Source: a virus. From it: a stretch of 49,415 nt of DNA. The notes below the pieces were generated by a model. The model searched no databases. It was not told the origin of the DNA and saw only the letters and a program-made list of their open reading frames with translations. A program made the translations under genes and the position numbers. Of the stretch, positions 21,768 through 49,415 are shown one piece after another. The stretch is taken from positions 1-49,415 of the IMG/VR virus record IMGVR_UViG_3300042934_001053. One strand, 5' to 3'. Numbering within the stretch: the first letter of the stretch is position 1; every line of letters starts with the position of its first letter.

Positions 21768-22523
21768 TCAATAATTAGTAATAATTAATTCCTTATACTT
21801 GCCTCTTGCATTCTTTTCCCTACTCACGGAGTATCCAACCTCAACTTCTTTAAAGTTAAAATCTTTATACCATTCTCTTACCTTTTCATGATCATTAATA
21901 GTTAATAAAAATTTACCTTTTATGTGAAATAACTTATCTCTTAAAATTAAGTGCTCAACTTCTCCAAATTCATTGCCATATCCAGTTAGTTCAAAATAAG
22001 GAGGATCTGCAAAGAAAAAGCTATGCTCTCTATCATATTTATCAATGATTTTTTCAAAGCTTAAATTCTCAACATAAGTATTTCTTAGCCTTTCTTTAAT
22101 CTCTCCTAATACATTTTTATAGTAAATTTGTGGTTTAGGCTTACAAGTAGTCCCATATCCATAGTCTTTTCCTTTAGCTGCAAAGCTTTGAGATATTAAA
22201 TATAAAAACCTCACAGCTCTATTGATTTCTGTGAGGTTTTCTACACAATAGTTTTTATATTCTTCAAAAATATCTCTTCCTGAGAATTCATATTCCAGCA
22301 TTCTCTCTATCTCTGGTGCATGGTATTTGATCATTCTAAACAAGTTGATGAGTTCTTTATCAATATCATTTATAACTTCCACCTTAGAAGGCTCTTTACC
22401 AAAGTATACCCATCCTGCACCAAAGAATAATTCTATATAACATGTATGCTCAGATATCATTTCTATTATAGTCTTTCTTAGTTTAGACTTACCTCCCATT
22501 CTTGAGATAGGTGGATTTAACAT
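21768..22523 (-). CDS. D12-class N6-adenine DNA methyltransferase (Dam-like), orphan
   Basis: 251 aa. N-terminal SRMGGKSKL, then ELFFGAGWV, EVINDIDKELINLF and the catalytic DPPY. No nuclease partner lies next to it. Confidence 0.85.
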   Translation of the reverse strand: MLNPPISRMGGKSKLRKTIIEMISEHTCYIELFFGAGWVYFGKEPSKVEVINDIDKELINLFRMIKYHAPEIERMLEYEFSGRDIFEEYKNYCVENLTEINRAVRFLYLISQSFAAKGKDYGYGTTCKPKPQIYYKNVLGEIKERLRNTYVENLSFEKIIDKYDREHSFFFADPPYFELTGYGNEFGEVEHLILRDKLFHIKGKFLLTINDHEKVREWYKDFNFKEVEVGYSVSREKNARGKYKELIITNY

Positions 22524-34040: not shown

Positions 34041-35237
34041 ATGGCGGTAAAAATCAACTATTCTAAGAACGGAAATGATTATTTTAGAGTAACCACATCA
34101 GTTGGTCGAGATAGCAATGGTAAATTAATAAGAAAAGAATTCTATGGAAAGAGTAAAAAGGAAGCTGAAGCTAAGAAAGATGACTATCTTAATGGACTAA
34201 AGAATGGACTTTCTATAGATTACAAAACTATAGTTCTTGGAAAGCTAATGCACTCCTGGTTATTCGAAATACTTAGAGTATCTAGCCATATAAAGCCTTC
34301 AACATTCCAAAGATACGAGGGAATTTTCAGAAACTACATAGAAAATAGCAACTTATACGGTATCAAGTTAAATGATATAAAATCTATTCAGATACAAAGA
34401 TATTATAACGAGCTTTATGAAAGCGGTAAGACTTACAGTCAAATATATAATCTGAATAAACTCTTAAAAAGTCTTTTAAACTATGCAGTTGAGGAAGGAT
34501 ATATTCTTAAAAATCCATGCTCTAACAAGAGAATTGTTATACCTGGACAAAGTAAAATTAAATCTACGATTAATAATGAATATGATGAAGATAATGAAGT
34601 TGTGATATATAGTAATGATGAGATCAAATTACTTAAGGCCGATCTAGAAAACCATAGACTTAAGGCTGCTATTTTACTAGATTTAGGAACCGGATTAAGA
34701 CTAGGTGAACTATTGGCATTACAGTGGTCTGATATTGATTCTGATTATTCCGAGCTAAAAGTTCAGCGAACCATTAAGGAAGTAACAGTAATAGCTGCTG
34801 ATAGAAGTAAGCAATATAAAACACTTATTCAGCCTCCCAAAACTAAGAAAAGCATCAGAACTGTTCCTATTCCATCTAGTCTTGTTGATGTTTTGAAGGA
34901 ACATAGACAAAGACAAGAAAAAGAAAAGTCGGACGCTGGAACTTCATATATTGAAAGTGATTTTGTATTTACTACTGAGTTAGGTAAAAATATTGATTCT
35001 AATAATTTTAGGCGGAGCTATAAGCGGATTCTCACCAAAGCTGGAATAGAATATAAAAAATTTCATGCACTGAGACATACTTATGCTACAAAATTATTTG
35101 AAAGAGAAGTACCTTTAAAAACTGTATCAGAGTTATTAGGTCACTCAGATATATCAATAACAGCTAATATTTACACTCATGTTATGCCAGAGGTAAAAAT
35201 TACTGCTGCTGAAAAATTAAATCATTTATTCGAATAA
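34041..35237 (+). CDS. int: Tyrosine recombinase / phage integrase
   Basis: 398 aa with an arm-binding type N-terminus and a SAM-like core. The catalytic region is GLRLGELLAL...HALRHTYATKL...LGHSDISITANIYTHV. Confidence 0.9.
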   Translation: MAVKINYSKNGNDYFRVTTSVGRDSNGKLIRKEFYGKSKKEAEAKKDDYLNGLKNGLSIDYKTIVLGKLMHSWLFEILRVSSHIKPSTFQRYEGIFRNYIENSNLYGIKLNDIKSIQIQRYYNELYESGKTYSQIYNLNKLLKSLLNYAVEEGYILKNPCSNKRIVIPGQSKIKSTINNEYDEDNEVVIYSNDEIKLLKADLENHRLKAAILLDLGTGLRLGELLALQWSDIDSDYSELKVQRTIKEVTVIAADRSKQYKTLIQPPKTKKSIRTVPIPSSLVDVLKEHRQRQEKEKSDAGTSYIESDFVFTTELGKNIDSNNFRRSYKRILTKAGIEYKKFHALRHTYATKLFEREVPLKTVSELLGHSDISITANIYTHVMPEVKITAAEKLNHLFE

Positions 35238-35250
35238 TATGTGGGAAAGA

Positions 35251-35287
35251 AGTGTGGGAATTTACACCACACTTTATTTTTTCTTTT
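35251..35287 (+). terminator. Integrase terminator
   Basis: AGTGTGG-GAATTTACA-CCACACT followed by TTATTTTTTCTTTTC. Confidence 0.6.
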
Positions 35288-35312
35288 CTAGTGTGGGAAT
35301 AATGTGGGAAAA
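35288..35312. repeat. Arm-type repeat CTAGTGTGGGAATAATGTGGGAAAA (copy 1)
   Basis: It is a perfect 25-bp direct repeat of 35506-35530. Additional TGTGGGAA sites are at 35240-47 and 35253-60. Confidence 0.85.
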
Positions 35313-35365
35313 TAGAAAAACACCTAAGTTCACATTATTGCAAACCTAGATGTTTCAATGCTTCT

Positions 35366-35414
35366 GGTGCGCCTGACAGGAGTCGAACCTGCGACCATTG
35401 GATTTGCTTTCCAA
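35366..35414 (-). other. attP core: 3' portion of a tRNA gene (T-arm, acceptor 3' strand, CCA, and possibly the anticodon arm)
   Basis: Minus strand: TTGGAAAGCAAATCCAATGGTCGCAGGTTCGACTCCTGTCAGGCGCACCA. It contains the T-loop GGTTCGACTCC and a terminal CCA. No D-arm or 5' acceptor strand is present. Confidence 0.7.
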
Positions 35415-35505
35415 TAAATTGTTATTATTGATAGCTTTCTAAAATCATTGATAATACTATACTTTCACATTTGCTTAATCTAGTACTTTTGATAACAATC
35501 TACAA

Positions 35506-35530
35506 CTAGTGTGGGAATAATGTGGGAAAA
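35506..35530. repeat. Arm-type repeat CTAGTGTGGGAATAATGTGGGAAAA (copy 2)
   Basis: Perfect copy of 35288-35312, on the other side of the tRNA fragment. Confidence 0.85.
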
Positions 35531-35667
35531 AAGAATTATTTATGTTGTCTTATTTAAATCTCTTTTAAACCAAGATCACTTATCTAATCAAACCTCATTT
35601 AGTAGCGTTAGTGAGTTTGATTTAAAAATGTATTAACTAATAGAAATCAAATTCTCTAATGGCAGCA

Positions 35668-37953
35668 TTACATTTTATCTATAGTATTTAAGATATAATC
35701 CATTTGATCATTTTCAATATTATAATTATCAATTAAATCTTCCCTTAGTCTCTTGTATTTATCTGTTAACTTCTCTATTTTATATAACTCTAATAGGACA
35801 ATTTTGTATTCATAATCCTCAGGGCTTTTGCAACAGAGTTCTTCTAATTTTTGTATTGCTATATCACAATTTCCAGATTCCTTAAATGCCAAAGCCTTAA
35901 GAAAAAGAGACCAATCATGATTTTTGTTAATAATAATTAAATCAGTACAACAATTATATATAAATTTAGTAAGATTTCCATACCCGTTTTTTTGTAATAT
36001 ATTTGACATAAAAAACGCTGCATCTATGAATCTATTATTACTTATTAAATTTGTTAGATCTTTAGCATCATCTTCATCAATTATAATTTTAAAATTATCA
36101 AATACTTTATTTATGTTATCATTAAGCTCATCCTTTAATAAAACATCATATGTTCTTTTTGAAAATTCTATATATGATGCTAATTTACTATCAAAATATA
36201 TTTCACTCAATAATCCTAAACATATTAGAACATTTTGTATACTGCATTTTGATTTATTTATGATAGACATAACAAATTGCATATATTCTAAGTTATAAAT
36301 AGCACCGCTTTTTTCCTTGGAATTTAAATATTTTAGCCCTTCTGATTTTAACTCAATACTGATGATAGCAAGCATAGAATAATAAACAAAATATAAATCA
36401 TCAATATATGCATTTTCTTTTAACAAAACAAATATATCATTATTTTTTGATAAAGTAATTTTACCAAAAGCATATATATAGTTCAATCTAATATGAGGAT
36501 CCTCTTTATTTTCTTCATATGTATTAATTAAGATATATAATAAACTTTTTGGACACCAAGTATATGATGCCATAAATAAACCAACAATTTTAATCTTTTC
36601 ATCTTGTGGTGTATCATCACTCATAAGCTTTTGATAAAAAAACTCATGGGATAATCTATAATCAATATAATCATATGATTTGTAGTTAGTTGATACTATT
36701 TCAGTAATTTGGATTTTTTTAACTATAGAAGAGTGTTGAAAAGTTTGTTTAAAATATTGTAACGATTCCTCAGTCCCTTGGCTTATATACTCTTCATAAT
36801 ATTTATCATAGTATTCTATACTGGAATAATCTACATTTACGTTAAAGCTAGTTGGAACACCATTATTGTCAAACGGTCTTTGAGTCTGATGTTCAACTGA
36901 TATAACATCATGAAGTACAGAGTTATTCATAAGATATTGTCTAAAAATAAGTTCATTTGAACAAATACTTTTAAACAGACTAGAAAACTTAGTGTATGTG
37001 TTTTCCAAGTCGTCTTGGGTACATTTATTAAGCATATCTAATATATCATTCAAATCTGCTGTTATATCTATATGACCACAGATTTTATTTCTTACATCTC
37101 TTAAAGACTGTATTTTTTCTTTATATTTATAGTTCTCTTTAAAATTCACTAGTATAGTATATGCCTTTTCAAATGATTTATTTTCCAGATATTTATTCTC
37201 TATAATTAAATCTAACCCATCCATCGCCTGTTTTGCATCTGCAGCAACATTCCTTGTAAACAAGGCATCAGAATAATTAATTAAATCGAGTATTAGCAAT
37301 TCCTTAAATAGATTTCTTATTAAAGAATTATTATCAATTTTTAAAATCCTTAATTCATAGTTAATAATAAGTTCTAAAGACTTTAGAATCCCAGCTCTTT
37401 CATGAAGTGGATGACCGGACAAAGCTGCCACCGTATTAGGACGAGTTAATGCAAGTACATCATTTGCAATTCTCGGTCTATTCTCTAAATCCATTACAGA
37501 TGATATAGATTCTACATCTTTTCCTATAGTACTTCCAATAATATGTAGGATGCTTGTAAAATCCTCATACCAAACTTCATTTTTAAACATATTATATATC
37601 TCGATGATACTTTTAATAAAAAAATCTATTTTATAGTATTCAATCTCGGACCATATATCAATTCTTGTTCCAAAATCCATTACTTTAAAATGCCCACCGA
37701 AACTGTTTCTTTGCTTGTACAAAAACTCTTTATACAGTTCCTCAAGCGCATTTAAACTTCCTTTTATTCTTTTTCTTCTACTTTTTTCATTTATATCTAT
37801 CTGATTATTAGCTTGTCTTGCAAGAGTAATAAATGCATCTAATCTGATCATTACAAATCTTGATAGAGCTCGTTTATAAAATCCACAGCTTTTTAACCTT
37901 AATAGTTGATCAAGTATGATAATTTCCTTAGTGCAATATTTTAACTTATCCAT
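35668..37953 (-). CDS. Large hypothetical protein with two HEPN-like RNxxxxH motifs and a C-terminal TPR-like helical region
   Basis: 761 aa. The motifs are KQRNSFGGHF (R82-H88) and VRNKICGHID (R288-H294). The C-terminal LKALAFKESGNCDIAIQKLEELCCKSPEDYEYKIVLLELYK looks TPR-like. Confidence 0.35.
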   Translation of the reverse strand: MDKLKYCTKEIIILDQLLRLKSCGFYKRALSRFVMIRLDAFITLARQANNQIDINEKSRRKRIKGSLNALEELYKEFLYKQRNSFGGHFKVMDFGTRIDIWSEIEYYKIDFFIKSIIEIYNMFKNEVWYEDFTSILHIIGSTIGKDVESISSVMDLENRPRIANDVLALTRPNTVAALSGHPLHERAGILKSLELIINYELRILKIDNNSLIRNLFKELLILDLINYSDALFTRNVAADAKQAMDGLDLIIENKYLENKSFEKAYTILVNFKENYKYKEKIQSLRDVRNKICGHIDITADLNDILDMLNKCTQDDLENTYTKFSSLFKSICSNELIFRQYLMNNSVLHDVISVEHQTQRPFDNNGVPTSFNVNVDYSSIEYYDKYYEEYISQGTEESLQYFKQTFQHSSIVKKIQITEIVSTNYKSYDYIDYRLSHEFFYQKLMSDDTPQDEKIKIVGLFMASYTWCPKSLLYILINTYEENKEDPHIRLNYIYAFGKITLSKNNDIFVLLKENAYIDDLYFVYYSMLAIISIELKSEGLKYLNSKEKSGAIYNLEYMQFVMSIINKSKCSIQNVLICLGLLSEIYFDSKLASYIEFSKRTYDVLLKDELNDNINKVFDNFKIIIDEDDAKDLTNLISNNRFIDAAFFMSNILQKNGYGNLTKFIYNCCTDLIIINKNHDWSLFLKALAFKESGNCDIAIQKLEELCCKSPEDYEYKIVLLELYKIEKLTDKYKRLREDLIDNYNIENDQMDYILNTIDKM

Positions 37954-38084
37954 TATATCACTTCCATTTATTTGTTATTATCCAATTGTACCCAAATTAA
38001 CTTTTCATATACCTATTATATCGCATATATATAAGTTCTTGTATTTCCATTGTTCTGAATTAACATTCCACTGAATAATGATTT

Positions 38085-38912
38085 TTATGGTTTCAAATAA
38101 TTTACCCCAAATATTTCTATATCTTTAAGTTGCCTTATGAAACTTTTCATATTTTTATAAAGTTCAGCTTGATAAACCTCAGTGATAACAGCATCTACAT
38201 AAGGTATAAAACAACTCATTTTAACATCCATAACATCATTTGGGTTGATTGATTTCTTCCTATCATAGATTTTCATAAATTGAGAATACTCCATTGCCCT
38301 AATTCCTGGCAATCTTTTTATGTCTAAGTCATTTATAATATCTATACCATGAACTCTAAGATCCTTTATAATAGTTTCCCTTTCTAATTTAAAGTATAGT
38401 TTTCTTAAATCGGATGGCTTTAACACATTAGATATACTGTAATAACTAGCTTTTGTGTCGTTCCATGTATTTGCTACTTCTTTAAGTCCAACAATTTCTA
38501 ATATGATATTATTTTTTATTACCTCGTTATTCCATAAATTTTCAAGAAACTTTTGTAATTCAAAACTGTCAGTCGGACCGAATGGAGAAAATGCATGAAT
38601 TATATTCCCATCGAGTACCACTTCTCTATTATTACAAAACGCATTATATTCCTCGTCAATAATTAGCTTATATGGAAGGAACATCATACATGGTATAATA
38701 GAAAAAATTTCTATGAATTTCTCATAAATGTCTTTATAAGGTTTCAGCTCAAAAACATTATATATAGAAAATACAGGTGCATATTTTAATGAATCTAGAT
38801 TTAAAAACTTATCTATAAAATTACTGAGACTCTGATTATTATTTAGCACTATTTCTCTGAGTGCATTAGTATCTAGATATACAAGTTTGTAGTCGTTACT
38901 ACCAATTTTCAT
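38085..38912 (-). CDS. Hypothetical protein with a PIN-like N-terminal motif
   Basis: 275 aa. It has KLVYLDTNALREIV near the N-terminus (a PIN beta1 D-T-N signature) and PYVDAVITE near the C-terminus. Confidence 0.3.
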   Translation of the reverse strand: MKIGSNDYKLVYLDTNALREIVLNNNQSLSNFIDKFLNLDSLKYAPVFSIYNVFELKPYKDIYEKFIEIFSIIPCMMFLPYKLIIDEEYNAFCNNREVVLDGNIIHAFSPFGPTDSFELQKFLENLWNNEVIKNNIILEIVGLKEVANTWNDTKASYYSISNVLKPSDLRKLYFKLERETIIKDLRVHGIDIINDLDIKRLPGIRAMEYSQFMKIYDRKKSINPNDVMDVKMSCFIPYVDAVITEVYQAELYKNMKSFIRQLKDIEIFGVNYLKP

Positions 38913-39049
38913 AATCTTACTCCTAAAACAGTAAAAAGTTTAATATATTTTCCAATATGCCTGCCACCTATGAACTGTACTCATAAAGATACTCATTGTA
39001 GCTCCCCCTTCGGTAGAACAAAAACGGATATATTTTATCTGATAACATT

Positions 39050-39793
39050 TTAAAAGTTATATTTGATAGGGTTTGCTGCTCCCTTCTTTCTATATTCCTT
39101 TGGAACTCTTTTACGTAAGTATATTTTTTTTATTGAATCATCGGCTTCATATCCAACGAATCCATACCTTTCTGGCCTATCTCCATTGAATTCGGGGAAA
39201 TTAGCTATAGTAGCAGATTTCCATTCAACTGGGATAAACACTCCTACAATGATACCTTGTTTAACTGCCAACACATAGTCTACTCTTTTTATTTTAGCTT
39301 TACTTAACTTCCATGCATATCTTGTTGCATCATAGATACTTCGTTCAGAAACAGATTTATTAATCGTAATCATGAGGACCTTATGCTCAAAAATAGCTTC
39401 TTGAGACATATATTTATTTATTATTTCTAAAGCATTCATAGGACCATACTCATTACTACCATGTCCACCCATTATGTTTGATACACCTGGATATGCATCA
39501 ATTAAAGCCGCTTCTACTTCTAATGCACATTTCTCATCCATCCCATGCCGGTGTATTACATGAATTACTTCTAAGCCAGCAACTATTATTTCTCTAATTA
39601 TTTGAATTTTATCATCAACTTCATCGAAGTTATCCATAGTAAGAGCACCTTTCATATGGTAAAAAACTCTATTTCCCTTACCTTTACCTATATAAAATGT
39701 TTCTCCATTTCTTGGATCTATAAGTCTATAAACATAATATTTTAATTCGTCAATTACCTCATTAGGAAACCTTTCCAATGCATTATTACTCAT
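39050..39793 (-). CDS. GIY-YIG nuclease-domain protein with an unassigned C-terminal domain
   Basis: YYVYRLIDPRNGETFYIGKGKGNRVFYH carries the GIY, YIG and Arg elements, with ALEVEAALIDAY downstream. 247 aa. Confidence 0.7.
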   Translation of the reverse strand: MSNNALERFPNEVIDELKYYVYRLIDPRNGETFYIGKGKGNRVFYHMKGALTMDNFDEVDDKIQIIREIIVAGLEVIHVIHRHGMDEKCALEVEAALIDAYPGVSNIMGGHGSNEYGPMNALEIINKYMSQEAIFEHKVLMITINKSVSERSIYDATRYAWKLSKAKIKRVDYVLAVKQGIIVGVFIPVEWKSATIANFPEFNGDRPERYGFVGYEADDSIKKIYLRKRVPKEYRKKGAANPIKYNF

Positions 39794-39939
39794 TATAAAC
39801 TCCTTTTCTAAATGTTTGTTAAAATATAGGCACTTAGAGCATTCTCCAGGCTATAACATTTAATTCTAATTAATTACTATTTATTCTAAACACTATTCGC
39901 AACATAGCTACCCTGAGCCATTTACTATATAAGATTATC

Positions 39940-40464
39940 CTAGGAATGAGTTAAATTAAAGAGTCTACTTAGAAGTTCGGAAGTATCTTTAATTTTCATA
40001 AATCTACTTTTAGGAATTTCACGGATAGAAGGTCTTTCTTTCTTTATTCCTAGAGAATTGCCTTTAGTATGTTTTGTTATTCTAAGATTATCTATGCCTG
40101 GTAATACTTCTCCTGGATTTCCTCCAAAAAATAAGTATTCTAAGCTAATTCTATTTTTTTCTTTATCAATATGCCTAGTCGTCCATACTACACATCCACT
40201 CGGTTTTTCAGCTAAGGCGACATTTATATTGACGGTAGATCTTTTTGCGCCTTCTATAGATGTCTTCAGTTGAATATGCCTTATAATTCCATTACACTCT
40301 AAAACTAAATCATAACCAGAACTATCTATTTCTGAGTGTAGTACTTCTATACATTGATTAAATTTAAACCATGCTTCTTGCAACACTTCTGAAATAAAAA
40401 CATGTTCAACTAACTGTTCATAAAAGTTTGACTTTACATAACTTTCTGTCTTTTCATCTACCAC
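39940..40464 (-). CDS. Small PD-(D/E)xK-like (DUF4365-like) protein
   Basis: 174 aa. HVFISEVL...EIDSSGYDLVLECNGIIRHIQLKTS has a D...(Q)xK arrangement. Confidence 0.35.
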   Translation of the reverse strand: MVDEKTESYVKSNFYEQLVEHVFISEVLQEAWFKFNQCIEVLHSEIDSSGYDLVLECNGIIRHIQLKTSIEGAKRSTVNINVALAEKPSGCVVWTTRHIDKEKNRISLEYLFFGGNPGEVLPGIDNLRITKHTKGNSLGIKKERPSIREIPKSRFMKIKDTSELLSRLFNLTHS

Positions 40465-40621
40465 TTTAATCTACCTCCACTTACTTAAACTGATTATAGT
40501 TTTCGTTTTTATAAAGTATCTCCTTGAAAGAAGATGATTTAATATAAAAAAATATTACCTTGTCTTACTTCGTAATATATCGAAATTTAGTACTTAAATA
40601 TTTACTTATATAAAATATACC

Positions 40622-40660
40622 ATGGTAATATATTCTACAAAATACTATAAATCCCTTCAA
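40622..40660 (-). promoter_or_regulatory. Accessory-cassette promoter box, copy A (TTGAAG-17-TAGAAT)
   Basis: 40622-40652 is identical (31/31) to 46570-46600. The -35 is at 40655-60 and the -10 at 40632-37 (minus strand). Confidence 0.5.
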
Positions 40661-40814
40661 GGTAACATAACCTATCAGATAATAACTACTAGCATTATCC
40701 AATTTTCTGATTTTCCTACTATTATATAGTTCTTCTATAGGTATTTTTACATTAAGTCATAGCTTTCTAATTATGTGCTATATTAAGTTCTACAAGATTC
40801 GTCTTACCATATAA

Positions 40815-40850
40815 AGAAAAGGAGCTTTATTTAAACTCCTTTTCTTTATT
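40815..40850. terminator. Weak bidirectional hairpin terminator
   Basis: AAGGAG-N11-CTCCTT is flanked by an A-run and a T-run. Confidence 0.35.
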
Positions 40851-41037
40851 TCTCAATTAACTCTTTTCAGTTTTTCTATATCAATACTAATAACTTCATT
40901 ATTTATACTAAGTGCAGCTCCCTCTTTTGCATTTGGATAATAAAATATACTAAATAACTACAACGTGCCCTTACAGAAATATAAGCAGTTCATATTTATT
41001 CTGCCAACATATTAATAAGCATAAAACCTTATGGTTT

Positions 41038-41640
41038 TTACTTTAGTGTATTAACTTTAACAAGATATGTATGTTCTTCAAGTAACCTTCTGTAATCACT
41101 TCTTAATAAATCTAATATTATTAATTCTTTTGTTTTTACATCATAATGCATAACATGCTCATCATTTTCTAAGTTAGCCTTATTTCTTAAGTTTGCTAGT
41201 ATACCAAATAAGCTTTCATGCCATTCTTTGTTATACTGAACCATACAACTTATTTTTAACTTATCTGAAATATTTTTGTCACCGTAAATGTTGTTGACTG
41301 CTTCATGTCTTCTACCATAAGCTTCCCCAAGCTGGTAGAATTCTTCAATCATGTCCATTGTTATATGTATTCTATATAATTCTTTACAATTTAGTTCTAC
41401 CATTTCTAAATCCTCCAGTACATCTTGTTTTATAACTTTTAGTGTTCTTGGCATAGTCTCGTCCCAGGTAATATACCCTTTTTTCTTTAACCGGCGTAAG
41501 TATCCATGTGTTGTAGAGCTAGATTTTAAGCCAACTAACTTCGTGAGCTCTCTTACTGACGGAGCTATCCTATTTTTATTTATGTATATATTTATCATTT
41601 GCAGCAACTCTTGTTGCTTCTTCGTTAGCTTTTCTCTCAT
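41038..41640 (-). CDS. LexA-type winged-helix DNA-binding domain protein lacking the S24 peptidase domain
   Basis: LTKKQQELLQMINIYINKNRIAPSVRELTKLVGLKSSSTTHGYLRRLKKKGYI fits LexA_DNA_bind. The C-terminal 120 aa are unassigned. Confidence 0.65.
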   Translation of the reverse strand: MREKLTKKQQELLQMINIYINKNRIAPSVRELTKLVGLKSSSTTHGYLRRLKKKGYITWDETMPRTLKVIKQDVLEDLEMVELNCKELYRIHITMDMIEEFYQLGEAYGRRHEAVNNIYGDKNISDKLKISCMVQYNKEWHESLFGILANLRNKANLENDEHVMHYDVKTKELIILDLLRSDYRRLLEEHTYLVKVNTLK

Positions 41641-41657
41641 TTCCCCAATCCCCTCGT

Positions 41658-41924
41658 TTACATCTTAAATAGCATCCATTTGCATGTTCGTAATTCATAC
41701 TTAAGTTCATAAATCCGTTTAGCACCATTAATAGTACTTTCACATTTTATAACTAGCATCTCATTTCCTGCTAATTTTTCCTTATCTATAGTCAGCATTC
41801 TATTAACTTTAATAACCATTTCACTTTCATCATCAGTTGTAACTTTAAATCTAACAGGATGAGGTATTCCAGTTTTTTCGAACCAACACACCATATCAAT
41901 CGGCTTTGCAATTATCTTCATCAT
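41658..41924 (-). CDS. Small hypothetical protein, first gene of the LexA-like operon
   Basis: About 88 aa from the ATG at 41924 behind GGAAGGTG (the track ORF runs to 41936). Its stop lies 18 nt from the next start. Confidence 0.5.
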   Translation of the reverse strand: MMKIIAKPIDMVCWFEKTGIPHPVRFKVTTDDESEMVIKVNRMLTIDKEKLAGNEMLVIKCESTINGAKRIYELKYELRTCKWMLFKM

Positions 41925-41955
41925 GACACCTTCCAAATATATGTTTGTATGGCTT

Positions 41956-41984
41956 ATTATATCAGAACATTAGTTCGTGTTCAA
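41956..41984 (-). promoter_or_regulatory. Promoter TTGAAC-17-TATAAT with an embedded Cheo-type LexA box (GAAC-N4-GTTC)
   Basis: Minus strand: TTGAACACGAACTAATGTTCTGATATAAT. The box is at 41965-41976. Confidence 0.65.
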
Positions 41985-42014
41985 GAAAAAAAATAAAAAG
42001 GAGCCTAAACTCCT
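41985..42014 (-). terminator. Terminator after the 198-aa membrane protein gene
   Basis: Minus strand: AGGAG-TTTAGG-CTCCT followed by TTTTTATTTTTTTT. It is a near-copy of the hairpin at 19934-51. Confidence 0.45.
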
Positions 42015-42052
42015 AGAACTTATTAAAACTAATAATATTATTTAATACAATA

Positions 42053-42649
42053 TTAATTATTCCTTTTCTGAATTGTATAGGTGTTGAAACCACCTTCTGG
42101 TGCATCGTTAAAATAAGTTTCTCCAGTTTCTTTTACATTCATAGCATATGTTATTCCGCCTCCACCATCTTTCACACCTTTAATCTCTAACTTACCTTTA
42201 GCTGGTACTATAAAACTTTTTACACCATGACTTATCATGAAAGGTTCTCCATAAGTCTTATCATCATGAATTAGTTGAACATAGTCACCATCTATTGCTG
42301 CAAAATCCCAAATACTAATATTAACTTCACTGGTCTTCGAATCCAGAATTATTTCTTGATTTCTCTGTTCGATTTTCTTGTCCTTATCAAATAATACTGC
42401 TCCTGGATAACTATCTTTTGAGATACCTGAGTTTATTATTTGCTGTACAGCTACACTAGGTTTAGATAATAGAAGTAATAATAAAATACAGCCTATAACT
42501 TCCAACACTAAAAAGATAGAAGCAATAGCAGCTATAACCTTAAACATTGATTTAGTCTTCCTCATAATAAATATTAGCAAACAAATTAACGCTCCAGACA
42601 ATCCTATCTTTAAGAATGTAACTACTATGTTATAGAATGAATTAAACAC
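42053..42649 (-). CDS. Hypothetical membrane protein (2 TM segments plus an extracytoplasmic domain)
   Basis: 198 aa. The TM stretches are VTFLKIGLSGALICLLIFIM and VIAAIASIFLVLEVIGCILLLLLL. Confidence 0.55.
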   Translation of the reverse strand: MFNSFYNIVVTFLKIGLSGALICLLIFIMRKTKSMFKVIAAIASIFLVLEVIGCILLLLLLSKPSVAVQQIINSGISKDSYPGAVLFDKDKKIEQRNQEIILDSKTSEVNISIWDFAAIDGDYVQLIHDDKTYGEPFMISHGVKSFIVPAKGKLEIKGVKDGGGGITYAMNVKETGETYFNDAPEGGFNTYTIQKRNN

Positions 42650-42765
42650 ACATATCAGTCCTTTAATCTATTTAACAGAATTTAATTTTCTAAAATCATA
42701 AATATTTCAGAAATGATGAATGACTTCGCTTTATTAACAAAGTCTTTATCAACTTAAACACTATA

Positions 42766-42838
42766 TTTTTACAATATTCTACACAATATAAAAAAATCCT
42801 TCAAAATAATAAAAAAGTCAGAAGGATTTCTCACACTT
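42766..42838 (-). promoter_or_regulatory. Accessory-cassette box, copy D (diverged): TTGAAG-17-TAGAAT plus a degenerate hairpin
   Basis: The -35 is at 42799-804 and the -10 at 42776-81 (minus strand). AAAAAAGTCAGAAGGATTTCTC resembles AAAAAGCCTAGAAGGATTTCTC. Confidence 0.4.
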
Positions 42839-42933
42839 GGAACTGTTACTTAATTATTCAGGAAAATTCTCATACTATTATATTTATCTTATGTTTTATC
42901 CTAGATTAATATATTTCAAAACGAAGTTTCAAT

Positions 42934-43749
42934 TTACTTTTCAAAAATATACCCTGATAATTTGTATATATTATCATAAGAATTTCTAACTATAATTCTA
43001 GCATCCACACATCTTTCGTCCTGTGGATTCCATTTGACTCCATTCCTATACTTTTGTATAACATCTCGCACAGATAGACACGAATTACTGTTGTTGATGA
43101 GGTCATATATAAATTCAAATGAGTTTCCTGTTTTATATGCTACATATTCGATAATTGTCCGGTCAATACCACTTACTTTATGAAATGCTGAAATGACGCC
43201 ATCTAGTAAGGCTTTCTGTATATTAACTATGTTAACTTCTTCTTTCTCGGGTTTTAAAATTTCAATATATATCCCAAATTCTCCCTCATAATCGCTTTTA
43301 TTAATAGTTACGCTATCTGATTTTTTTAAAGCAATCCAATAGTCAAGTGGCTTTTTTGAAGTACTTGGTTTATCGATAGCAACATTACTCCATTCAGCGA
43401 TGATATTAGTTCTGTTATCCTCTATTGAATCTATAAAACTGTACTGATGAAAATATCTGAAATCTTGCTGTTCAGAAGTCCTTTCTAATGAAAAACATAC
43501 ACCTTTAGTATCAAGTCTTTTGAAATTAGATGTGCCTACATTATAAAATAAAATATTCTCAACATCAAAAAACTCAACTTCGTTAGTCTGTAATTTGGCT
43601 ACAAGATATTGTTTTTGCGGAGTTAATCCCCTTAAAGCATTTACTAGGTCATTCTTTAGTTTTTTTCTCCAATCCTTTGGTTCAAGACTTAATCGTTTCT
43701 GGGTCTTTACAGTTAATAAATTATCTTCTTTTATAATTTCATACTGCAT
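42934..43749 (-). CDS. Hypothetical protein
   Basis: 271-aa ORF. No family was recognised. Confidence 0.55.
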   Translation of the reverse strand: MQYEIIKEDNLLTVKTQKRLSLEPKDWRKKLKNDLVNALRGLTPQKQYLVAKLQTNEVEFFDVENILFYNVGTSNFKRLDTKGVCFSLERTSEQQDFRYFHQYSFIDSIEDNRTNIIAEWSNVAIDKPSTSKKPLDYWIALKKSDSVTINKSDYEGEFGIYIEILKPEKEEVNIVNIQKALLDGVISAFHKVSGIDRTIIEYVAYKTGNSFEFIYDLINNSNSCLSVRDVIQKYRNGVKWNPQDERCVDARIIVRNSYDNIYKLSGYIFEK

Positions 43750-43854
43750 TACTACACCTCGTCATTTGTTATTGCCTATCATCTCTCATATTAATTAATT
43801 CTATAAATGATAGTTTTCCCCTTCTTTTGGTAATAATTTAGATGAGGTTATTTT

Positions 43855-43938
43855 ATGAAAGCAAAATCGTACGCGAGAATTGATATAAGTATTCTACTTG
43901 CAGTTGCTGCAGCTCTGGTTGTATTTTGGGCGAAATAA
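43855..43938 (+). CDS. 27-aa hydrophobic peptide (candidate type I toxin-like or membrane peptide)
   Basis: MKAKSYARIDISILLAVAAALVVFWAK. It has a GAGG RBS 8 nt upstream and an extended -10 (TGGTAATAA) at 43828-36. It is not in the track. Confidence 0.35.
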   Translation: MKAKSYARIDISILLAVAAALVVFWAK

Positions 43939-43969
43939 AAAAAGCCTAGAAGGATTTTCATCTTCTAGG
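43934..43969 (-). terminator. Hairpin terminator of the CCTAGAAG family, overlapping the 3' end of the small plus-strand ORF
   Basis: CCTAGAAG (43945-52) pairs with CTTCTAGG (43962-69). On the minus strand it is followed by CTTTTTTTATTT. Confidence 0.55.
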
Positions 43970-44145
43970 AACTATCCTTTCATTAATTGTCACTTAGACA
44001 CAAAAATTACATATAAAGACCCGTACTCCTGACGCCGAGAAGTCTAGAGCTCTTCACATGGTGAAAGAATGGGCATTGGCCTCTTTGAAGTATTACTCAA
44101 AACATCCAAAATTGACTTAAGTGCTTTGTTAGTCTAAAGACATAT

Positions 44146-45012
44146 TTAGATTTCAAATACTACTGTTCCAGAAGTAACTTCAATAATGATAAATTTATTT
44201 TTGTTTCTGATTAGTTTAAAATCGACTTCATGATCATTTATATGTAATTTTTCTTTCAATTCTAGTTTTATTAAATCAATATTTTTCACTATCTCTTTTT
44301 CTGCCTCATGTAGTATTGTTAATAAATCATCAGCTTTAATAGTATGATTAATATTTGTTCTTGCTGAAGTGAGTCCCCCACCAATTGGAGTAAATACTTT
44401 CCCATTAACCTCATAAAGAACATATGCTCCGCCTTTTCTTAATTGTTCTATTTCTTTATCACTAGGCTTATGAACACTCATAACATCTTTTAACTGATAT
44501 GGCTCCATCATTTCAGGCCAGTTTCTTTCAAAAATCTGCAATAATTCCTGTTTTGCAAATATACTCTTCGTCTTATGCTTTTGGACATCTATAAAATATA
44601 CGTCATTATCATATACCTTCACAAATAATAAATAGTCTGATCTCTCCATGAAGAAGTTTCCCTTAGAATCTTTCTTATTACTTAAATGTAGATGATGTAT
44701 TCCCCAATCATCTAAAAGATAATCTAGAAAATCCGCATCTAGTATATTTCTGCTTAAGTAAGGATTAACATCTTCCCCTTTTGTAAACTTTGATTCAATT
44801 TCGTTTAATATTCTTAAGAGGTCACCTTCAATTTTTAAGAGTTTAACACAATCTGTCTTGTGTACGTTTCTAGGTCTTATCGGTATCAATTTGTTACCAA
44901 TATTATAATATTGAACTAAAATCTTATGGATATTGCCAGTTTCATCATATTTTATCCCAAGGCTTTTCATTTGACTTACAACTTCACTTCTTAAATCTTC
45001 AAATAAATTCAT
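44146..45012 (-). CDS. Hypothetical protein
   Basis: 288-aa ORF with RBS GAAGGAAGG. No family was recognised. Confidence 0.6.
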   Translation of the reverse strand: MNLFEDLRSEVVSQMKSLGIKYDETGNIHKILVQYYNIGNKLIPIRPRNVHKTDCVKLLKIEGDLLRILNEIESKFTKGEDVNPYLSRNILDADFLDYLLDDWGIHHLHLSNKKDSKGNFFMERSDYLLFVKVYDNDVYFIDVQKHKTKSIFAKQELLQIFERNWPEMMEPYQLKDVMSVHKPSDKEIEQLRKGGAYVLYEVNGKVFTPIGGGLTSARTNINHTIKADDLLTILHEAEKEIVKNIDLIKLELKEKLHINDHEVDFKLIRNKNKFIIIEVTSGTVVFEI

Positions 45013-45154
45013 AATATATTCCTTCCTTCAATATGCATTCGCCTAATGTTTCACGTTGCCGACATTCCTGAAGCTTAGCACGACGCGCTTGGTGAATGAT
45101 TGTGCCTTGATACCGATTTAATTATTAACCGTTATATTGATTATGAACTACAAA

Positions 45155-45182
45155 TTTATACCTTACTATATAAGAAATTCAA
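45155..45182 (-). promoter_or_regulatory. Candidate promoter TTGAAT-16-TATAAA for the 288-aa gene
   Basis: Minus strand: TTGAATTTCTTATATAGTAAGGTATAAA. It would give a leader of about 140 nt. Confidence 0.35.
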
Positions 45183-45218
45183 CCAAAGCTTACGGAAGCA
45201 TTTCGTTAAGAGAATTAA

Positions 45219-46403
45219 TCAAAGCTTAAAATATTCTATTAGGAACCTTCTGAAAATAAATCCCCCAACATCTCTTAGCATAAGAAGATTAATATATGGT
45301 AGTTGCATTATTACACCTATATCAGATTTAGATAATTGCGGATTACTTACCCCACCATAATATGACCTATTACTAAAAAACTCGCCAGAATGCACATATG
45401 CACTTCTCTTTTTGTAATAATCATCAATTATTCCTTTATCCATATATCCTTCTGAATAATTTTCAATAAGTTTTATAACTTTTTGCCTTATAGAAAAGAT
45501 ATTCTGGTTACAACTTTCACATCTTGAGTCGTTTGAATCCATTATGCTCGCCAACACTTCAAATGAAGACATATACAACATATTGGCTACTTCTTCAAAA
45601 GATAATCCATATTCCACTTGTTTAAAATCATAATTATCGTAATCATATATAAAACTTGTATACTTAGTTGCTGTATGAAAAAGTCTACATGCATCTATAT
45701 ATTTCTCAAATTCATCATCGTGTTGCTGACTAATAATTTTATCAATAGCTTCAACACTTTTTTCCATTACTTTAATTCTATTATTAATTATAGGATAGGT
45801 ATCAACCCAGTTTTCGCTTGCAAAATTGTTATAATCGTTTATTTCTGGTAAGGCTTTAACATTATCTGTTTGAAAAATCACATGGCTAATCTGAGTCGAT
45901 AAGAAATCTATAACCTTACCATTTATCTTTGCTAATTCACTGCCCACATCTTTTTTGTCAAAGCCGTTTATTGCAAAAATAATTGAAAACTCATTATCAT
46001 AATTTATTATCCTAAAATTCTTACCACAGTAGTTGTCAATTCCTTCACCAATTGTTTTATAAGCCATTCTTAAGTATACAGTACTAATATCCTTTTTATA
46101 GTTTTTGGCCGCATCAACTATTGTAATGAGCATCTCATAGTCTCTATTTACATCTCCATTAGAATCTTGTGGTTCAAAAATTAGCTTCTTAATACAGCCT
46201 CGTATTTCATATTTTATTTTGACATAATACAAACCAGATAAGACATTAGTTGATACAAACCCTAAACTTATTATTTTATTTTTTGCATCTTTATATGGCG
46301 TAAAATTCCAGCCCATCTGCCCATCATTTCTCAGTTTTGTCCATAAAGCTCTTAGAAACATATTTGATTCTTCAACTGTAGTATAATTAATATCAAATTC
46401 CAT
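45219..46403 (-). CDS. Hypothetical protein with a C-terminal HEPN-like RSxxxH motif (Apea-like)
   Basis: 394 aa from the ATG at 46403 behind AGGAG (the track ORF uses the GTG at 46436). A CESC pair is followed by YYKKRSAYVHSGEF (Rx4H). Confidence 0.4.
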   Translation of the reverse strand: MEFDINYTTVEESNMFLRALWTKLRNDGQMGWNFTPYKDAKNKIISLGFVSTNVLSGLYYVKIKYEIRGCIKKLIFEPQDSNGDVNRDYEMLITIVDAAKNYKKDISTVYLRMAYKTIGEGIDNYCGKNFRIINYDNEFSIIFAINGFDKKDVGSELAKINGKVIDFLSTQISHVIFQTDNVKALPEINDYNNFASENWVDTYPIINNRIKVMEKSVEAIDKIISQQHDDEFEKYIDACRLFHTATKYTSFIYDYDNYDFKQVEYGLSFEEVANMLYMSSFEVLASIMDSNDSRCESCNQNIFSIRQKVIKLIENYSEGYMDKGIIDDYYKKRSAYVHSGEFFSNRSYYGGVSNPQLSKSDIGVIMQLPYINLLMLRDVGGFIFRRFLIEYFKL

Positions 46404-46471
46404 CTTCGTCTCCTGTTCTACTAATACGATTTTCACAGATTAATTGATGATTTCTCTTAACATTAAAAATT

Positions 46472-46517
46472 TCCGAATTATATTTCGGATTATAACGAAA
46501 TGTAGTAGTATTTCCAA
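46472..46517 (-). promoter_or_regulatory. Promoter TTGGAA-17-TATAAT followed by the inverted repeat TCCGAA-N6-TTCGGA
   Basis: The -35 is at 46512-17 and the -10 at 46489-94 (minus strand). The inverted repeat at 46472-89 overlaps the -10/+1 region. Confidence 0.55.
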
Positions 46518-46549
46518 CGTTTATATCGGAAAATATCTCTGTAGATGTT

Positions 46550-46647
46550 TTTTACACTATAATATTCCTATGGTAATATATTCTACAAAATACTATAAAT
46601 TCCTCTAAAAACTCAAAAAAGCCTAGAAGGATTTCTCTCTCTAGGCT
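46550..46647 (-). promoter_or_regulatory. Accessory-cassette box, copy B: hairpin terminator (46620-47) plus TTTAGA-18-TAGAAT
   Basis: AGCCTAGA...TCTAGGCT is followed by a T-run on the minus strand. The -35 is at 46604-09 and the -10 at 46580-85. TTTTTACACT is shared with copy C. Confidence 0.5.
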
Positions 46648-46704
46648 CGTACTATTTTATCTTATGAGAATATTATGAAGCAAAATCAATGCTAAGTTAA
46701 AAAA

Positions 46705-46713
46705 TGGTATAAT
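46705..46713 (+). promoter_or_regulatory. Extended -10 promoter TGGTATAAT for the 100-aa plus-strand gene
   Basis: It lies 47 nt upstream of the ATG at 46760. The gene's RBS is AGGAGG. Confidence 0.5.
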
Positions 46714-46759
46714 ATAAATATAAAAATTATTATATGTAAGTAGGAGGCAGCGGATAAAT

Positions 46760-47062
46760 ATGGATCCAATAGTAATTGAAGGTTTAAAAGCAATTAAAAA
46801 TCGTATTAATATGTCAACAGGATTTGTGCATCCTGATGATAAGGCAAGCGTTATAGAGCTTTTAAAAAAGCTTAATGATGCAGGACATATTTTAGTCCCT
46901 TCACAAATAACAAGTTGGGCTTTACAAAATGGATTTCAACCTAAATATGCTCAAGAGCTAGAAGGATTTGCAGCAGGTGTAATTTCTGGTAAGAAATATA
47001 AAATCGGAAAGAATCACTGGAATGAGAATATTATAAAAGTATTAGAAGAAAGATCTAAATAA
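46760..47062 (+). CDS. Hypothetical protein
   Basis: 100-aa ORF with a strong RBS (TAGGAGGCAG) and its own promoter and terminator. Confidence 0.6.
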   Translation: MDPIVIEGLKAIKNRINMSTGFVHPDDKASVIELLKKLNDAGHILVPSQITSWALQNGFQPKYAQELEGFAAGVISGKKYKIGKNHWNENIIKVLEERSK

Positions 47063-47095
47063 TCAATAATCATTTAAACCTACTTAACTCTCTGT

Positions 47096-47132
47096 TCAGC
47101 TTGGCTTTAAATATATTTTCAAGCCAAGCTGA
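47096..47132. terminator. Bidirectional terminator between convergent genes
   Basis: There is a 12-bp stem, TCAGCTTGGCTT / AAGCCAAGCTGA, with a 13-nt loop. Confidence 0.65.
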
Positions 47133-47168
47133 GTGAATTTATTGTTTAATGTAGGTGAAGTTTGCGCT

Positions 47169-48086
47169 TTACTTTTCGTAACTAGGAACAATCATCTTTT
47201 CTTTATGCCTTATTTCCCAGCCGTCATGTAAGTTGATTTGAACAATTTGATCTCTACTATCAAATATTACATCTGCTTGTTTGCCCCATTTTAATTTAAT
47301 TACTTCTCTTCTTAATCCGTTTTGTAAATTTATGATTTGTTTATGTACTATTTGATCTTCAGGTATTTTTAAAGAGTACTCTGACAACTCATATGGGAAT
47401 TTAGTATCTGCAACATTACCATCTATATCCATTTCATAGTATGATATTTGTCCATGTATATCTATAAAATCAATATATAAAAGGCCATTTTTTAAGATAT
47501 ATATTGCTTCTGCTCCATTAGGAAATTTAACTGTATGTCTTTTTCCTTCTATTATTTGTGATTCAATTCCATAGTTATCTATTATTGTCCATCCTTTGAA
47601 AGATTCCTCTTCTTTTTTATCTGGCAGTTGCCCTTGAATAGCTAACTTATTTAATAAATCAATGATTTTAGTTGAGGTATCACTGCTCTCAGTTATATGC
47701 CTTTTCTCAGTTAAGGCTTTGTTCAGTGCAAAATCCCTCATCATATTACTATGGAACATCTTAATAAAATAACTTAAAGCCTCTTGTGTAACATCCTTAA
47801 CTCCATCAAAACCTTTAACAGATAATTCATTCTGTAAATCAATGTTATTTCCATAAAATAAGCTTTTTATTATACAATCAATATTTGATTGCTTCGCTAA
47901 AAAACTTGAACAAGGTTTACCAAATTCATCACCATATTTATCAAAAAAGTTTTTACTTGTTTCTTCTAAAACACAATAGACTTTCTGACTTACCTCATCA
48001 TAATCTGGAAAAACATCTTTTAGAACATTTTTAATTATGTCATATATACCATTTCCAAATACGCCTAATAAAATTTCTCCAAACAC
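47169..48086 (-). CDS. Hypothetical protein
   Basis: 305-aa ORF with a Gly-rich hydrophobic N-terminus (MFGEILLGVFGNGIYDII). No family was recognised. Confidence 0.55.
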   Translation of the reverse strand: MFGEILLGVFGNGIYDIIKNVLKDVFPDYDEVSQKVYCVLEETSKNFFDKYGDEFGKPCSSFLAKQSNIDCIIKSLFYGNNIDLQNELSVKGFDGVKDVTQEALSYFIKMFHSNMMRDFALNKALTEKRHITESSDTSTKIIDLLNKLAIQGQLPDKKEEESFKGWTIIDNYGIESQIIEGKRHTVKFPNGAEAIYILKNGLLYIDFIDIHGQISYYEMDIDGNVADTKFPYELSEYSLKIPEDQIVHKQIINLQNGLRREVIKLKWGKQADVIFDSRDQIVQINLHDGWEIRHKEKMIVPSYEK

Positions 48087-49033: not shown

Positions 49034-49415
49034 CTAATCTGTTGGATTGCTTTTACTCTTAAGTTGTGTCAAAACAGTTACTAATTTATCTGGAACGGGC
49101 AAACCCATCTTTGCTGCATTCTCAATTAAACTAACGCCCTCATTTGCTATGTAAAAATAACATACAAGAGTACGGAATACCCATGAACCATTATTTAAGA
49201 GTCTATCTAGTGATACTGCAACAATTAGGACAACTAAGATAGTAAATTTCTTTAACAGACCTTTAAAGCCTATACTAGAGCTTAAAGTTTTGTTCATAAC
49301 TCCACCGAGGAATCCAGTAATATAATCAAGGACCATGAAAAGAATAAGCACCCCTAGAGCTGTATCCCATGCTCCAAAGATAAAGGTGAACCATGTCCCA
49401 ACTAATGCTGCTATT
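49034..49415 (-). CDS. Holin (Phage_holin_4_1 / TIGR01593-like), truncated by the window end; the N-terminus is at 1..150
   Basis: MVLDYITGFLGG...SSSIGFKGLLKK...YFYIANEGVSLIENAAKMGLPVP is typical of this holin family. The ORF stays open to 49415. Confidence 0.85.
   Translation of the reverse strand, partial: IAALVGTWFTFIFGAWDTALGVLILFMVLDYITGFLGGVMNKTLSSSIGFKGLLKKFTILVVLIVAVSLDRLLNNGSWVFRTLVCYFYIANEGVSLIENAAKMGLPVPDKLVTVLTQLKSKSNPTD
49289..49415. repeat. Second copy of the 127-bp terminal repeat
   Basis: Same sequence as 1..127. Confidence 0.95.

Follow-up and report, generated by a model that had tools for sequence, protein, structure and literature searches.

The 49,415-nt viral record IMGVR_UViG_3300042934_001053 of IMG/VR (hereafter the window, i.e. 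the whole stretch of DNA that was analysed) carries four consecutive minus-strand genes for predicted nucleases between positions 35,668 and 40,464, directly beside the phage attachment site (attP). Our analysis makes it likely that four nuclease genes, each autonomous and mobile on its own, have come together in this island by accretion, probably carried on one transcript, with each product working alone and the set providing layered protection to the lysogen. As such, the island is an example of prophage accessory or defence cargo of an already known type, with no new system architecture. An initial annotation, made from the letters of the DNA alone, had offered two readings, a stack of independent single-gene defences and a multi-component system of cooperating nucleases; the first was supported, and for the second no co-occurrence was seen across ∼120 loci. 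In transcription order, the open reading frames (ORFs) of the island are:

39940..40464, minus strand: ORF of 174 amino acids (aa) with a GTG start, a small PD-(D/E)xK-fold protein
39050..39793, minus strand: 247-aa ORF, a CMoRE/PD-T4-3 orthologue
38085..38912, minus strand: 275-aa ORF, an alpha/beta core with a helical insertion, possibly PIN-like
35668..37953, minus strand: 761-aa ORF, a tandem-HEPN protein with a TPR-like C-terminal half

The four ORFs are co-oriented and separated by gaps of 146, 137 and 131 nt in transcription order, as the initial annotation had described, and a GGAG-type ribosome-binding site lies ahead of each. The remark that the island lacks a methyltransferase, a small antitoxin-like ORF and a helicase was likewise correct; the gap upstream holds only a 45-aa ORF with a TTG start. 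The GC content of the island genes is 26–32.5%, compared with 35–39% in the structural genes, and their codon usage is phage-like.

The combined-system reading fails because the four families co-occur in no other locus examined. Within 8 kb on either side of the 761-family genes of 14 genomes (Bacteroidota, Proteobacteria and Acidobacteria; loci found with a 7-sequence alignment) there was no relative of the 174-, 247- or 275-aa proteins, and no neighbour family was present in more than two of these loci, spurious overlapping ORFs aside. Four further 761-family loci, one of them with a short form of the protein beside Mrr, also contained no relative of the other three families. The same was true of 85 loci of the 174-aa family (80 metagenome loci, L029-L108, included), which had no 247-, 275- or 761-aa relative, of 15 loci of the 275-aa family, and of 4 diverse PD-T4-3 loci of the 247-aa family. 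In total, ∼120 loci with a relative of one family were covered and none contained a relative of another, the sole exception being a contig from the same phage. This contig (L001; Logan SRR35185192), 5.3 kb long, corresponds to positions 40651..35375 of the window with 100% identity and represents an independent assembly. A recurrent pairing of the 174- and 247-aa families was considered on account of the type IV enzymes that neighbour the former, and was absent from the 85 and 4 loci, respectively.

Database matches followed the same pattern. The 247-, 761-, 275- and 174-aa proteins matched 24, 0, 1 and 0 GenBank phage records, respectively, none of them common to two proteins, and 184, 19, 0 and 45 plasmid records, where the taxa differed and no accession was common among the matches listed. 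Scans of IMG/VR for the 761-, 247- and 275-aa families returned no match, as did a megablast of the region against GenBank phages, and PDB sequence searches with the 761-, 275-, 174- and 405-aa proteins (the last from the neighbouring cargo, see below) gave nothing useful. The taxonomic ranges of the families also differ: the 275-aa family is confined to Clostridia, the 761-aa family has its main range in Bacteroidota, Proteobacteria and Acidobacteria, whilst the 174-aa family is pan-bacterial.

Piecemeal assembly of the island is indicated because one contig shares the 275-aa gene alone with the window and a related prophage lacks the island altogether. The contig (L002) matches the window only at 38946-38062, at 81% nucleotide identity, a segment comprising the 275-aa gene and ∼30 nt of each flank; the genes on either side of its 275-aa relative are entirely different from those of the window. 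The prophage (L121; holin 89% and endolysin 72% identical) keeps a 92-aa gene and its partner with a LexA-type DNA-binding domain (see below), without the island, and this pair is followed by host-type genes (a DinG-like helicase, LysR, DAPG hydrolase and MFS). Since L121 does without it, the island can be regarded as dispensable cargo. In another relative, L120, the genes after the endolysin differ from those of the window.

Judged by its sequence, the 247-aa protein is a full-length orthologue of CMoRE/PD-T4-3. It matched the PD-T4-3 model of PADLOC (PDLC04031; PADLOC 2.0 models, 2023 copy, were used throughout) at 1.5e-109, with residues 6-247 aligned to positions 3-254 of the 256 in the model, and the PDB entries 9u75 (1.6e-77) and 9u7u (3.2e-75), with residues 6-246 against 8-259. 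A Pfam match to LEM-3_GIY-YIG (1e-13), together with these matches, confirms the GIY-YIG label given to the protein initially. PD-T4-3/CMoRE is a single-component type IV restriction enzyme with anti-phage activity and specificity for modified DNA (PMC12923530). The enzyme recognises 5-hydroxymethylcytosine (5hmC) or the glucosylated form (5ghmC) through its C-terminal domain and uses its GIY-YIG domain to degrade DNA so modified; Y17, Y19 and Y31 are each required for activity, and a negatively charged autoinhibitory loop between helices alpha2 and alpha3 contains four consecutive acidic residues (PMC12923530). In the HMMER alignment, the three tyrosines correspond to Y20, Y22 and Y34 of the 247-aa protein, and the aligned loop reads MDNFDEVDD, compared with AADDDDLLS in 9u75, i.e. 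it is acidic without four acidic residues in a row. Identity to copies on E. coli plasmids was ∼50% (tblastn), and at four diverse PD-T4-3 plasmid loci the neighbours were unrelated, with no conserved partner.

Further homologues were noted. On plasmid pAQ7 of Picosynechococcus sp. PCC 7002 (L207, 4689-6585) the insertion of an IS4-family transposase divides a CMoRE homologue in two, residues 4-51 and 51-247 mapping to opposite sides. Full-length CMoRE/PD-T4-3 homologues of ∼40% identity are also held by jumbo phages (GenBank phage records H1-H17), examples being Serratia phage Moabite (6409-7164) and Pseudomonas phage OBP (158718-159452).

The best candidate in the island for something new is the 761-aa protein, which would be a HEPN variant of abortive infection (Abi) if a defence role were shown. 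A word-indexed homologue search with this protein returned only itself; its relatives come from an exhaustive HMMER (phmmer) search, which yielded 181 cluster representatives (50% identity clusters), 49 of them below 1e-30. Most are ∼750 aa long and align end to end at 22–33% identity, and a subset of ∼360 aa covers residues 1-362 only. The protein has the following features:

37690..37710, minus strand: first HEPN Rx5H motif, R82-N-S-F-G-G-H88; R and H kept in 135/135 aligned relatives
37072..37092, minus strand: second HEPN Rx5H motif, R288-N-K-I-C-G-H294; kept in 130/130 aligned relatives
35734..36036 (approximate limits), minus strand: TPR-like repeats, approximately residues 640-740

The motif counts were obtained from 149 representatives and refer to the sequences aligned at those columns; R82, H88, R288 and H294 were also invariant in a 35-sequence alignment. 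The second motif falls within a Pfam HEPN_AbiU2 match (residues 257-318), a family that is matched by 19 of the 35 members at E≤0.01 (best 1.5e-8). The protein of the window itself scored 17.1 bits, below the cut-off of 26.8, and would on this basis be a distant relative of HEPN_AbiU2 and not a clear member. The two HEPN modules are homologous with their motifs in register (hhalign of residues 1-150 against 190-365; probability 84%, E 7.5e-6). Positions 636-735 of the family profile matched consensus TPR proteins and the TPR region of OGT in PDB at 4e-14 to 1e-7, and the TPR families of Pfam match a few family members. The invariant motif pairs, the homology of the modules and the TPR profile matches thus bear out the earlier description of a double RNxxxxH/TPR protein.

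Neither the 761-aa protein nor its family members matched any model in PADLOC 2.0, Abi models included, and no description of a “HEPN-TPR” protein was returned by a literature search. Neighbours at 761-family loci include integrases, AIPR with HsdR, glmS and insertion sequence (IS) elements; one locus with the short form adjoins Mrr. At this one locus a short (∼360 aa) tandem-HEPN protein encoded next to a separate TPR gene was considered and rejected, the gene there being a convergent Mrr gene.

The active site of HEPN enzymes is a composite one, examples being HEPN dimers and Cas13. By analogy, the presence of two HEPN modules in one chain suggests that the 761-aa protein forms an intramolecular composite RNase site.

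For the 174-aa protein, more than 689 homologues were found at ∼55–64% identity in very different phyla; the family keeps ∼60% identity among Planctomycetota, Patescibacteria, Proteobacteria and others. Residues E20, D52 and Q65-x-K67 (Q65-L-K67) are invariant or nearly so, with D52 and K67 invariant among 40 homologues. The match to Pfam PDDEXK_5 (E 0.0034, 17.8 bits) lies below the cut-off of 26.1 bits, and a PDB profile match to the homing endonuclease I-Ssp6803I (2ost, E 0.066) is weak, with the YD...QxK core aligned. The top Foldseek matches of an AlphaFold2 (AF2) model (predicted local distance difference test, pLDDT, 89) are exclusively PD-(D/E)xK enzymes, namely a SPARDA nuclease (E 4e-3, probability 0.97), Hjc and EcoRV. 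The PD-(D/E)xK label of the initial annotation is therefore upheld at the level of the fold, by Foldseek and the D52/QxK signature, with the Pfam PDDEXK_5 threshold missed.

No Pfam or PADLOC model covers the 174-aa family. In three long contigs (L010, L011 and L013) its gene directly follows McrB-McrC, adjoins Mrr/ScoMcrA or is flanked by hsdS and hsdR. Among 126 ORFs adjoining genes of the family, the commonest Pfam families were Methylase_S (6), HSDR_N (5), Fpg (5) and HNH (4). One member overlaps the McrC stop codon, and this unannotated small gene appears to hitch-hike with restriction systems. Because of their neighbourhoods, the 174-aa and 275-aa families are both reasonable defence candidates.

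The homologues of the 275-aa protein, 54 in number, all appear to be from Clostridia or from gut and environmental Firmicutes. Its AF2 model (pLDDT 92.9) shows an alpha/beta/alpha core with a helical insertion of ∼120 aa. Five acidic residues, D14 (in LDTN), E55, D226, D229 and E245, are each invariant or at least 90% conserved in the family; in the model D14 follows directly after strand 1 and E245 after strand 5, with E55, D226 and D229 on adjacent helices. None of 50 members has a Pfam match, and one source labels the homologue P0038 as “DUF4935 domain-containing”. Foldseek against PDB returned nothing significant (best E 0.4); the weak matches are mostly PIN proteins (VapC, Utp24, Nmd4 and HARP), and all those above a probability of 0.2 are PIN. 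Foldseek against BFVD was uninformative. On these weak structural neighbours the PIN-like label given earlier is plausible but unproven. Genes of the family were found after a relaxase on an integrative and conjugative element (ICE), beside TIR and RnlAB, overlapping a SEC-C gene, and beside an NgoBV-type restriction-modification (R-M) system in an island that also holds Cap4.

The island lies in a complete circular genome of a temperate phage of ∼49.3 kb (about 49,288 bp), without host flanks, because the two ends of the window (1-127 and 49289-49415) are identical over 127 nt each and the holin ORF continues across the junction; “attP” is therefore the correct term for the attachment site. 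Along the genome, the early and structural genes are followed by Abi_alpha, holin and endolysin, then by a minus-strand cargo region of ∼12.5 kb, and after attP by the integrase, an ImmA-like protease and a cI-like repressor. The cargo region extends on a single strand between the endolysin (48227) and attP and is larger than the four nuclease genes, which make up its attP-proximal third. The Clostridia-restricted 275-aa family, a choline-binding endolysin and a GC content of 32% point to a Clostridia-type Firmicute as host. The integration features next to the island are:

35238..35667, no strand assigned: attP region, with arm-type direct repeats and a core like the 3' portion of a tRNA
34041..35237, plus strand: tyrosine integrase, convergent with the island (Pfam Phage_integrase 7e-33, phrog_1 1.8e-76)

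The spacer between the 761-aa gene and the integrase measures 430 nt. It contains 30-nt arm-type direct repeats (at 35288 and 35506, 97% identity), to which a third copy at 35240 is related, and a tRNA-like segment on the minus strand (35368-35474; Rfam tRNA 21.5 bits, E 0.048). The anticodon arm, T-arm and 3' acceptor of this segment fit the tRNA model and the 5' acceptor is mismatched; ARAGORN did not find a complete tRNA. By its sequence, the segment resembles the 3' part of a tRNA used as integration target, copied into the phage. The spacer repeats, the tRNA-like segment, the convergent integrase and the circular genome together support the view that the island ends at attP, as had been proposed.

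Expression signals were found upstream of the island:

40811..40849, minus strand: terminator-like hairpin, a 17-bp stem followed by a U-rich tract, between the gene with the LexA-type DNA-binding domain and the island
40611..40660, minus strand: promoter-like element upstream of the island, TTGAAG, 17 nt and a TG-extended TAGAAT, then the palindrome ATACCATGGTAT

The hairpin (40849-40811) has a folding energy of -24.8 kcal/mol (z = -5.3), and 0/200 shuffles were equally stable. The promoter-like element (40660-40611; TTGAAG-17-TGTAGAAT plus the palindrome) follows ∼150 nt beyond it. A near-identical second copy of 45 nt, the sole other copy in the genome, is located at 46605-46558 on the minus strand, upstream of the 405-aa gene; the 18-nt core of the element occurs exactly twice in the window, with 0.04 occurrences expected. 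Each copy directly follows a terminator-like hairpin and precedes a cargo cluster, one led by the 174-aa and the other by the 405-aa gene, and this arrangement suggests that the duplicated element may be a common promoter/operator of the two accessory clusters. The ends of contig L001 fall exactly at the duplicated element and inside the tRNA-like att segment (35375), break points that are consistent with both elements being repeats in the SRR35185192 sample; the break in the att segment suggests that the tRNA gene or attB is also present in that sample.

The four genes probably form one transcription unit, with a single transcript predicted because of the upstream terminator-like hairpin and promoter-like element and the unstructured gaps between the genes. 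The three gaps fold no better than shuffled sequences (z +1.3, -0.15 and -0.9), and the region 35238-42100 contains no structured RNA or known RNA family at gathering score. Integron- or cassette-like repeats between the genes were considered and rejected, there being no repeat common to the three gaps. A generic scan for promoter consensus sequences gave 38 sites compared with 48 ± 7 in shuffles, i.e. below chance expectation, and the promoter-like sequences that the initial annotation had seen in some gaps accordingly carry no weight. Co-transcription is a common organisation of cargo stacks and does not make the genes one system.

The genes would act independently of one another in a layered attack on superinfecting phages at the level of both DNA and RNA. 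The C-terminal domain of the 247-aa protein would read 5-hydroxymethyl- or glucosyl-hydroxymethyl-cytosine and its GIY-YIG domain would cut, as shown for the E. coli protein, so shielding the lysogen from hypermodified phages. In the 761-aa protein the most likely arrangement is an intrachain pairing of the two HEPN halves into a composite Rx4-6H RNase site, and the helical/TPR-like half of ∼400 aa may serve as a sensor or inhibitor that holds the RNase inactive until a phage cue is received; upon infection, RNA cleavage would lead to abortive infection. The 174-aa protein is a putative minimal PD-(D/E)xK DNase with a role that is likely restriction-like, as are the modules with which the family travels (type I R-M, McrBC and Mrr). 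The weakest of the four calls concerns the 275-aa protein, possibly a PIN-like nuclease that depends on metal, with a possible regulatory role for its helical insertion.

Several points weigh against a layered defence by four independent nucleases. For three of the families “defence” is guilt by association, because they have no PADLOC 2.0 model or experimental precedent; the thought that each family might map to an already described single-gene system applied to the 247-aa protein only (CMoRE/PD-T4-3), and the other three correspond to no PADLOC 2.0 system. A PIN-like identity of the 275-aa product lacks statistical support. Addiction modules, too, classically use HEPN and PIN enzymes as toxins. 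The jumbo-phage homologues of CMoRE are annotated as homing or GIY-YIG endonucleases, and their role may deserve re-examination. The island genes are co-oriented with the late and lysis genes, with expression in the lytic cycle possible. Lastly, many of the comparison contigs are short (1–5 kb), and absence of the other families from these is weaker evidence than absence from the ∼40 loci whose flanks reach 5 kb or more.

Some of these points would fit selfish mobile nucleases of the homing-endonuclease type or addiction toxins, with some or all of the four genes persisting by mobility or by prophage stabilisation rather than by protection of the host, which we judge unlikely. The toxin folds and the jumbo-phage annotations are joined here by the nearest sequence and fold relatives of the 174-aa protein, which include I-Ssp6803I, and by the precise single-gene cassette boundaries of the 275-aa gene seen in L002. 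However, anti-phage activity and modified-DNA specificity have been demonstrated for CMoRE (PMC12923530), the island has no antitoxin-like partner, members of the 174-aa family lie inside restriction operons without interrupting conserved genes, and two strictly conserved HEPN motifs with a long sensor-like domain are typical of regulated Abi effectors. There is also a slim chance that these are lytic-cycle nucleases that help take over the host or scavenge nucleotides, with read-through of the late/lysis operon as the source of their expression: the orientation is that of holin, endolysin and all late genes, and codon usage is phage-like, though GC lies below that of the core genes. Yet two terminator-like hairpins (42014-41999 and 40849-40811) stand between the lysis genes and the island, the related prophage L121 does without the island genes, and the homologues are mostly chromosomal, plasmid- or ICE-borne, in restriction and defence contexts and not in phage genomes. 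A single multi-component system, e.g. one in which a sensor nuclease activates the others, is highly improbable, the least credible of the readings weighed. The tight one-strand array with its regular gaps of 131–146 nt, the single upstream promoter-like element with no internal terminator-like structure, and the presence of all four genes in the sole other contig with the 761-aa protein would agree with such a system, but that contig (L001) is DNA of the same phage at 100% identity, 0 of the ∼120 other loci pair two families, the taxonomic ranges differ, the 247-aa family is a proven single-gene system, and the 275-aa gene moves alone.

We thus favour the accretion of four autonomous genes described at the outset. 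A bolder form of it would make the 761-aa protein the founding phage example of an unrecognised single-protein Abi family that spans phyla (at least 181 clusters, from Bacteroidota, Proteobacteria, Acidobacteria and Firmicute phages) and has a TPR-gated, Cas13-like site, and would count the 174- and 275-aa families as undescribed single-gene defences, i.e. three new systems beside one known; this is conceivable, and we regard it as doubtful.

Beyond the nuclease stack, on its upstream side, lies a pair of genes that is conserved in L121 (69% and 59% identity), where it forms the last phage module before host DNA:

41038..41936, minus strand: 92-aa and 200-aa pair, upstream of the island and outside the nuclease stack

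In the 200-aa protein, a LexA-type winged-helix DNA-binding domain (LexA_DNA_bind 4e-19) is joined to a non-peptidase C-terminal part. The pair has its own promoter-like site (41984-41956) and terminator-like hairpins on both sides, and it may regulate the cargo clusters. Five further co-oriented cargo ORFs (305, 405, 288, 271 and 198 aa) occupy 42053-48086 on the minus strand, with the endolysin on one side and the 92-aa gene on the other. Pfam and PHROGs gave no match to any of them, the 271- and 198-aa ORFs also have no significant PADLOC and no NCBIfam match, and the 405-aa ORF matches nothing in PDB. The 198-aa protein has a hydrophobic N-terminus. Elsewhere in the genome and outside the island, an Abi_alpha gene (268-1059, minus strand; PF14337 2e-41, phrog_2232) is located between the tail genes and the holin. 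A 251-aa ORF of the early region (21768-22523, minus strand), far outside the island, is weakly similar (26% over 309 aa, 7e-8) to an ORF for a D12-class adenine methyltransferase in L010 and may be an orphan phage methyltransferase.

The island shows several predicted effectors against DNA and RNA packed beside the attP of a temperate phage whose host is of the Gram-positive anaerobe type. It extends CMoRE/PD-T4-3 from Enterobacteria to a Firmicute phage, which implies that phages with hydroxymethyl-cytosine are a relevant threat there. In addition, three compact unannotated nuclease families, the tandem-HEPN/TPR, the minimal PD-(D/E)xK and the PIN-like, are nominated as candidates for single-gene defence.

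Among known systems, CMoRE/PD-T4-3 is matched by the 247-aa protein in its two-domain layout, catalytic tyrosines and stand-alone gene. The characterised copies are from Enterobacteria (E. coli ECOR68, APEC O1 and O157:H7), whereas the present one is from a low-GC, Firmicute-type temperate phage; its loop in the corresponding place is acidic (DNFDEVDD) and lacks the four consecutive acidic residues, and its substrate specificity is a prediction.

The 174-aa model finds its best structural matches in PDDEXK_5/I-Ssp6803I, archaeal Hjc and the SPARDA nuclease domain, and its D52...Q65-x-K67 aligns with I-Ssp6803I. It differs from these in falling below the family thresholds, in an extra beta-rich C-terminal part (residues 100-170), and in the setting of the family, which sits in restriction loci and not in group I introns or among recombination genes. 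With the PIN nucleases (VapC, Utp24/Fcf1, Nmd4 and HARP) the 275-aa protein may share its alpha/beta/alpha core and the placing of its conserved acidic residues, but it has an insertion of 120 residues, no VapB-like antitoxin and no significant match to them.

According to Anantharaman et al. (2013, PMC3710099), genes for AbiU2-type HEPN proteins share operons with Sel1-repeat genes and are also found in operons with R-M systems. The 761-aa family comes closest to this type: its second module matches HEPN_AbiU2 in 19/35 relatives and has an Rx4-6H motif, and some relatives adjoin AIPR/HsdR or Mrr; unlike the AbiU2 type, however, the 761-aa protein fuses two HEPN modules and a helical/TPR-like tail of ∼400 aa in one chain of ∼750 aa. 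Its likeness to Cas13 is confined to the mode of action and lies in two HEPN domains per polypeptide with both R..H pairs strictly conserved. It has no CRISPR array, crRNA-binding lobes or sequence similarity to Cas13, and its trigger would be a protein or other cue received through the repeat domain.

As a whole, the island can be compared with the hotspots of prophage defence cargo (“morons”) near att sites, e.g. those of P2 and P4 and the prophage defences of mycobacteriophages. The difference is one of gene content, three of the four families being without a described defence function. The likeness lies in the position and build of the island, which is cargo of lower GC content that varies between related phages, placed between the lysis genes and attP and provided with its own predicted terminator and promoter.

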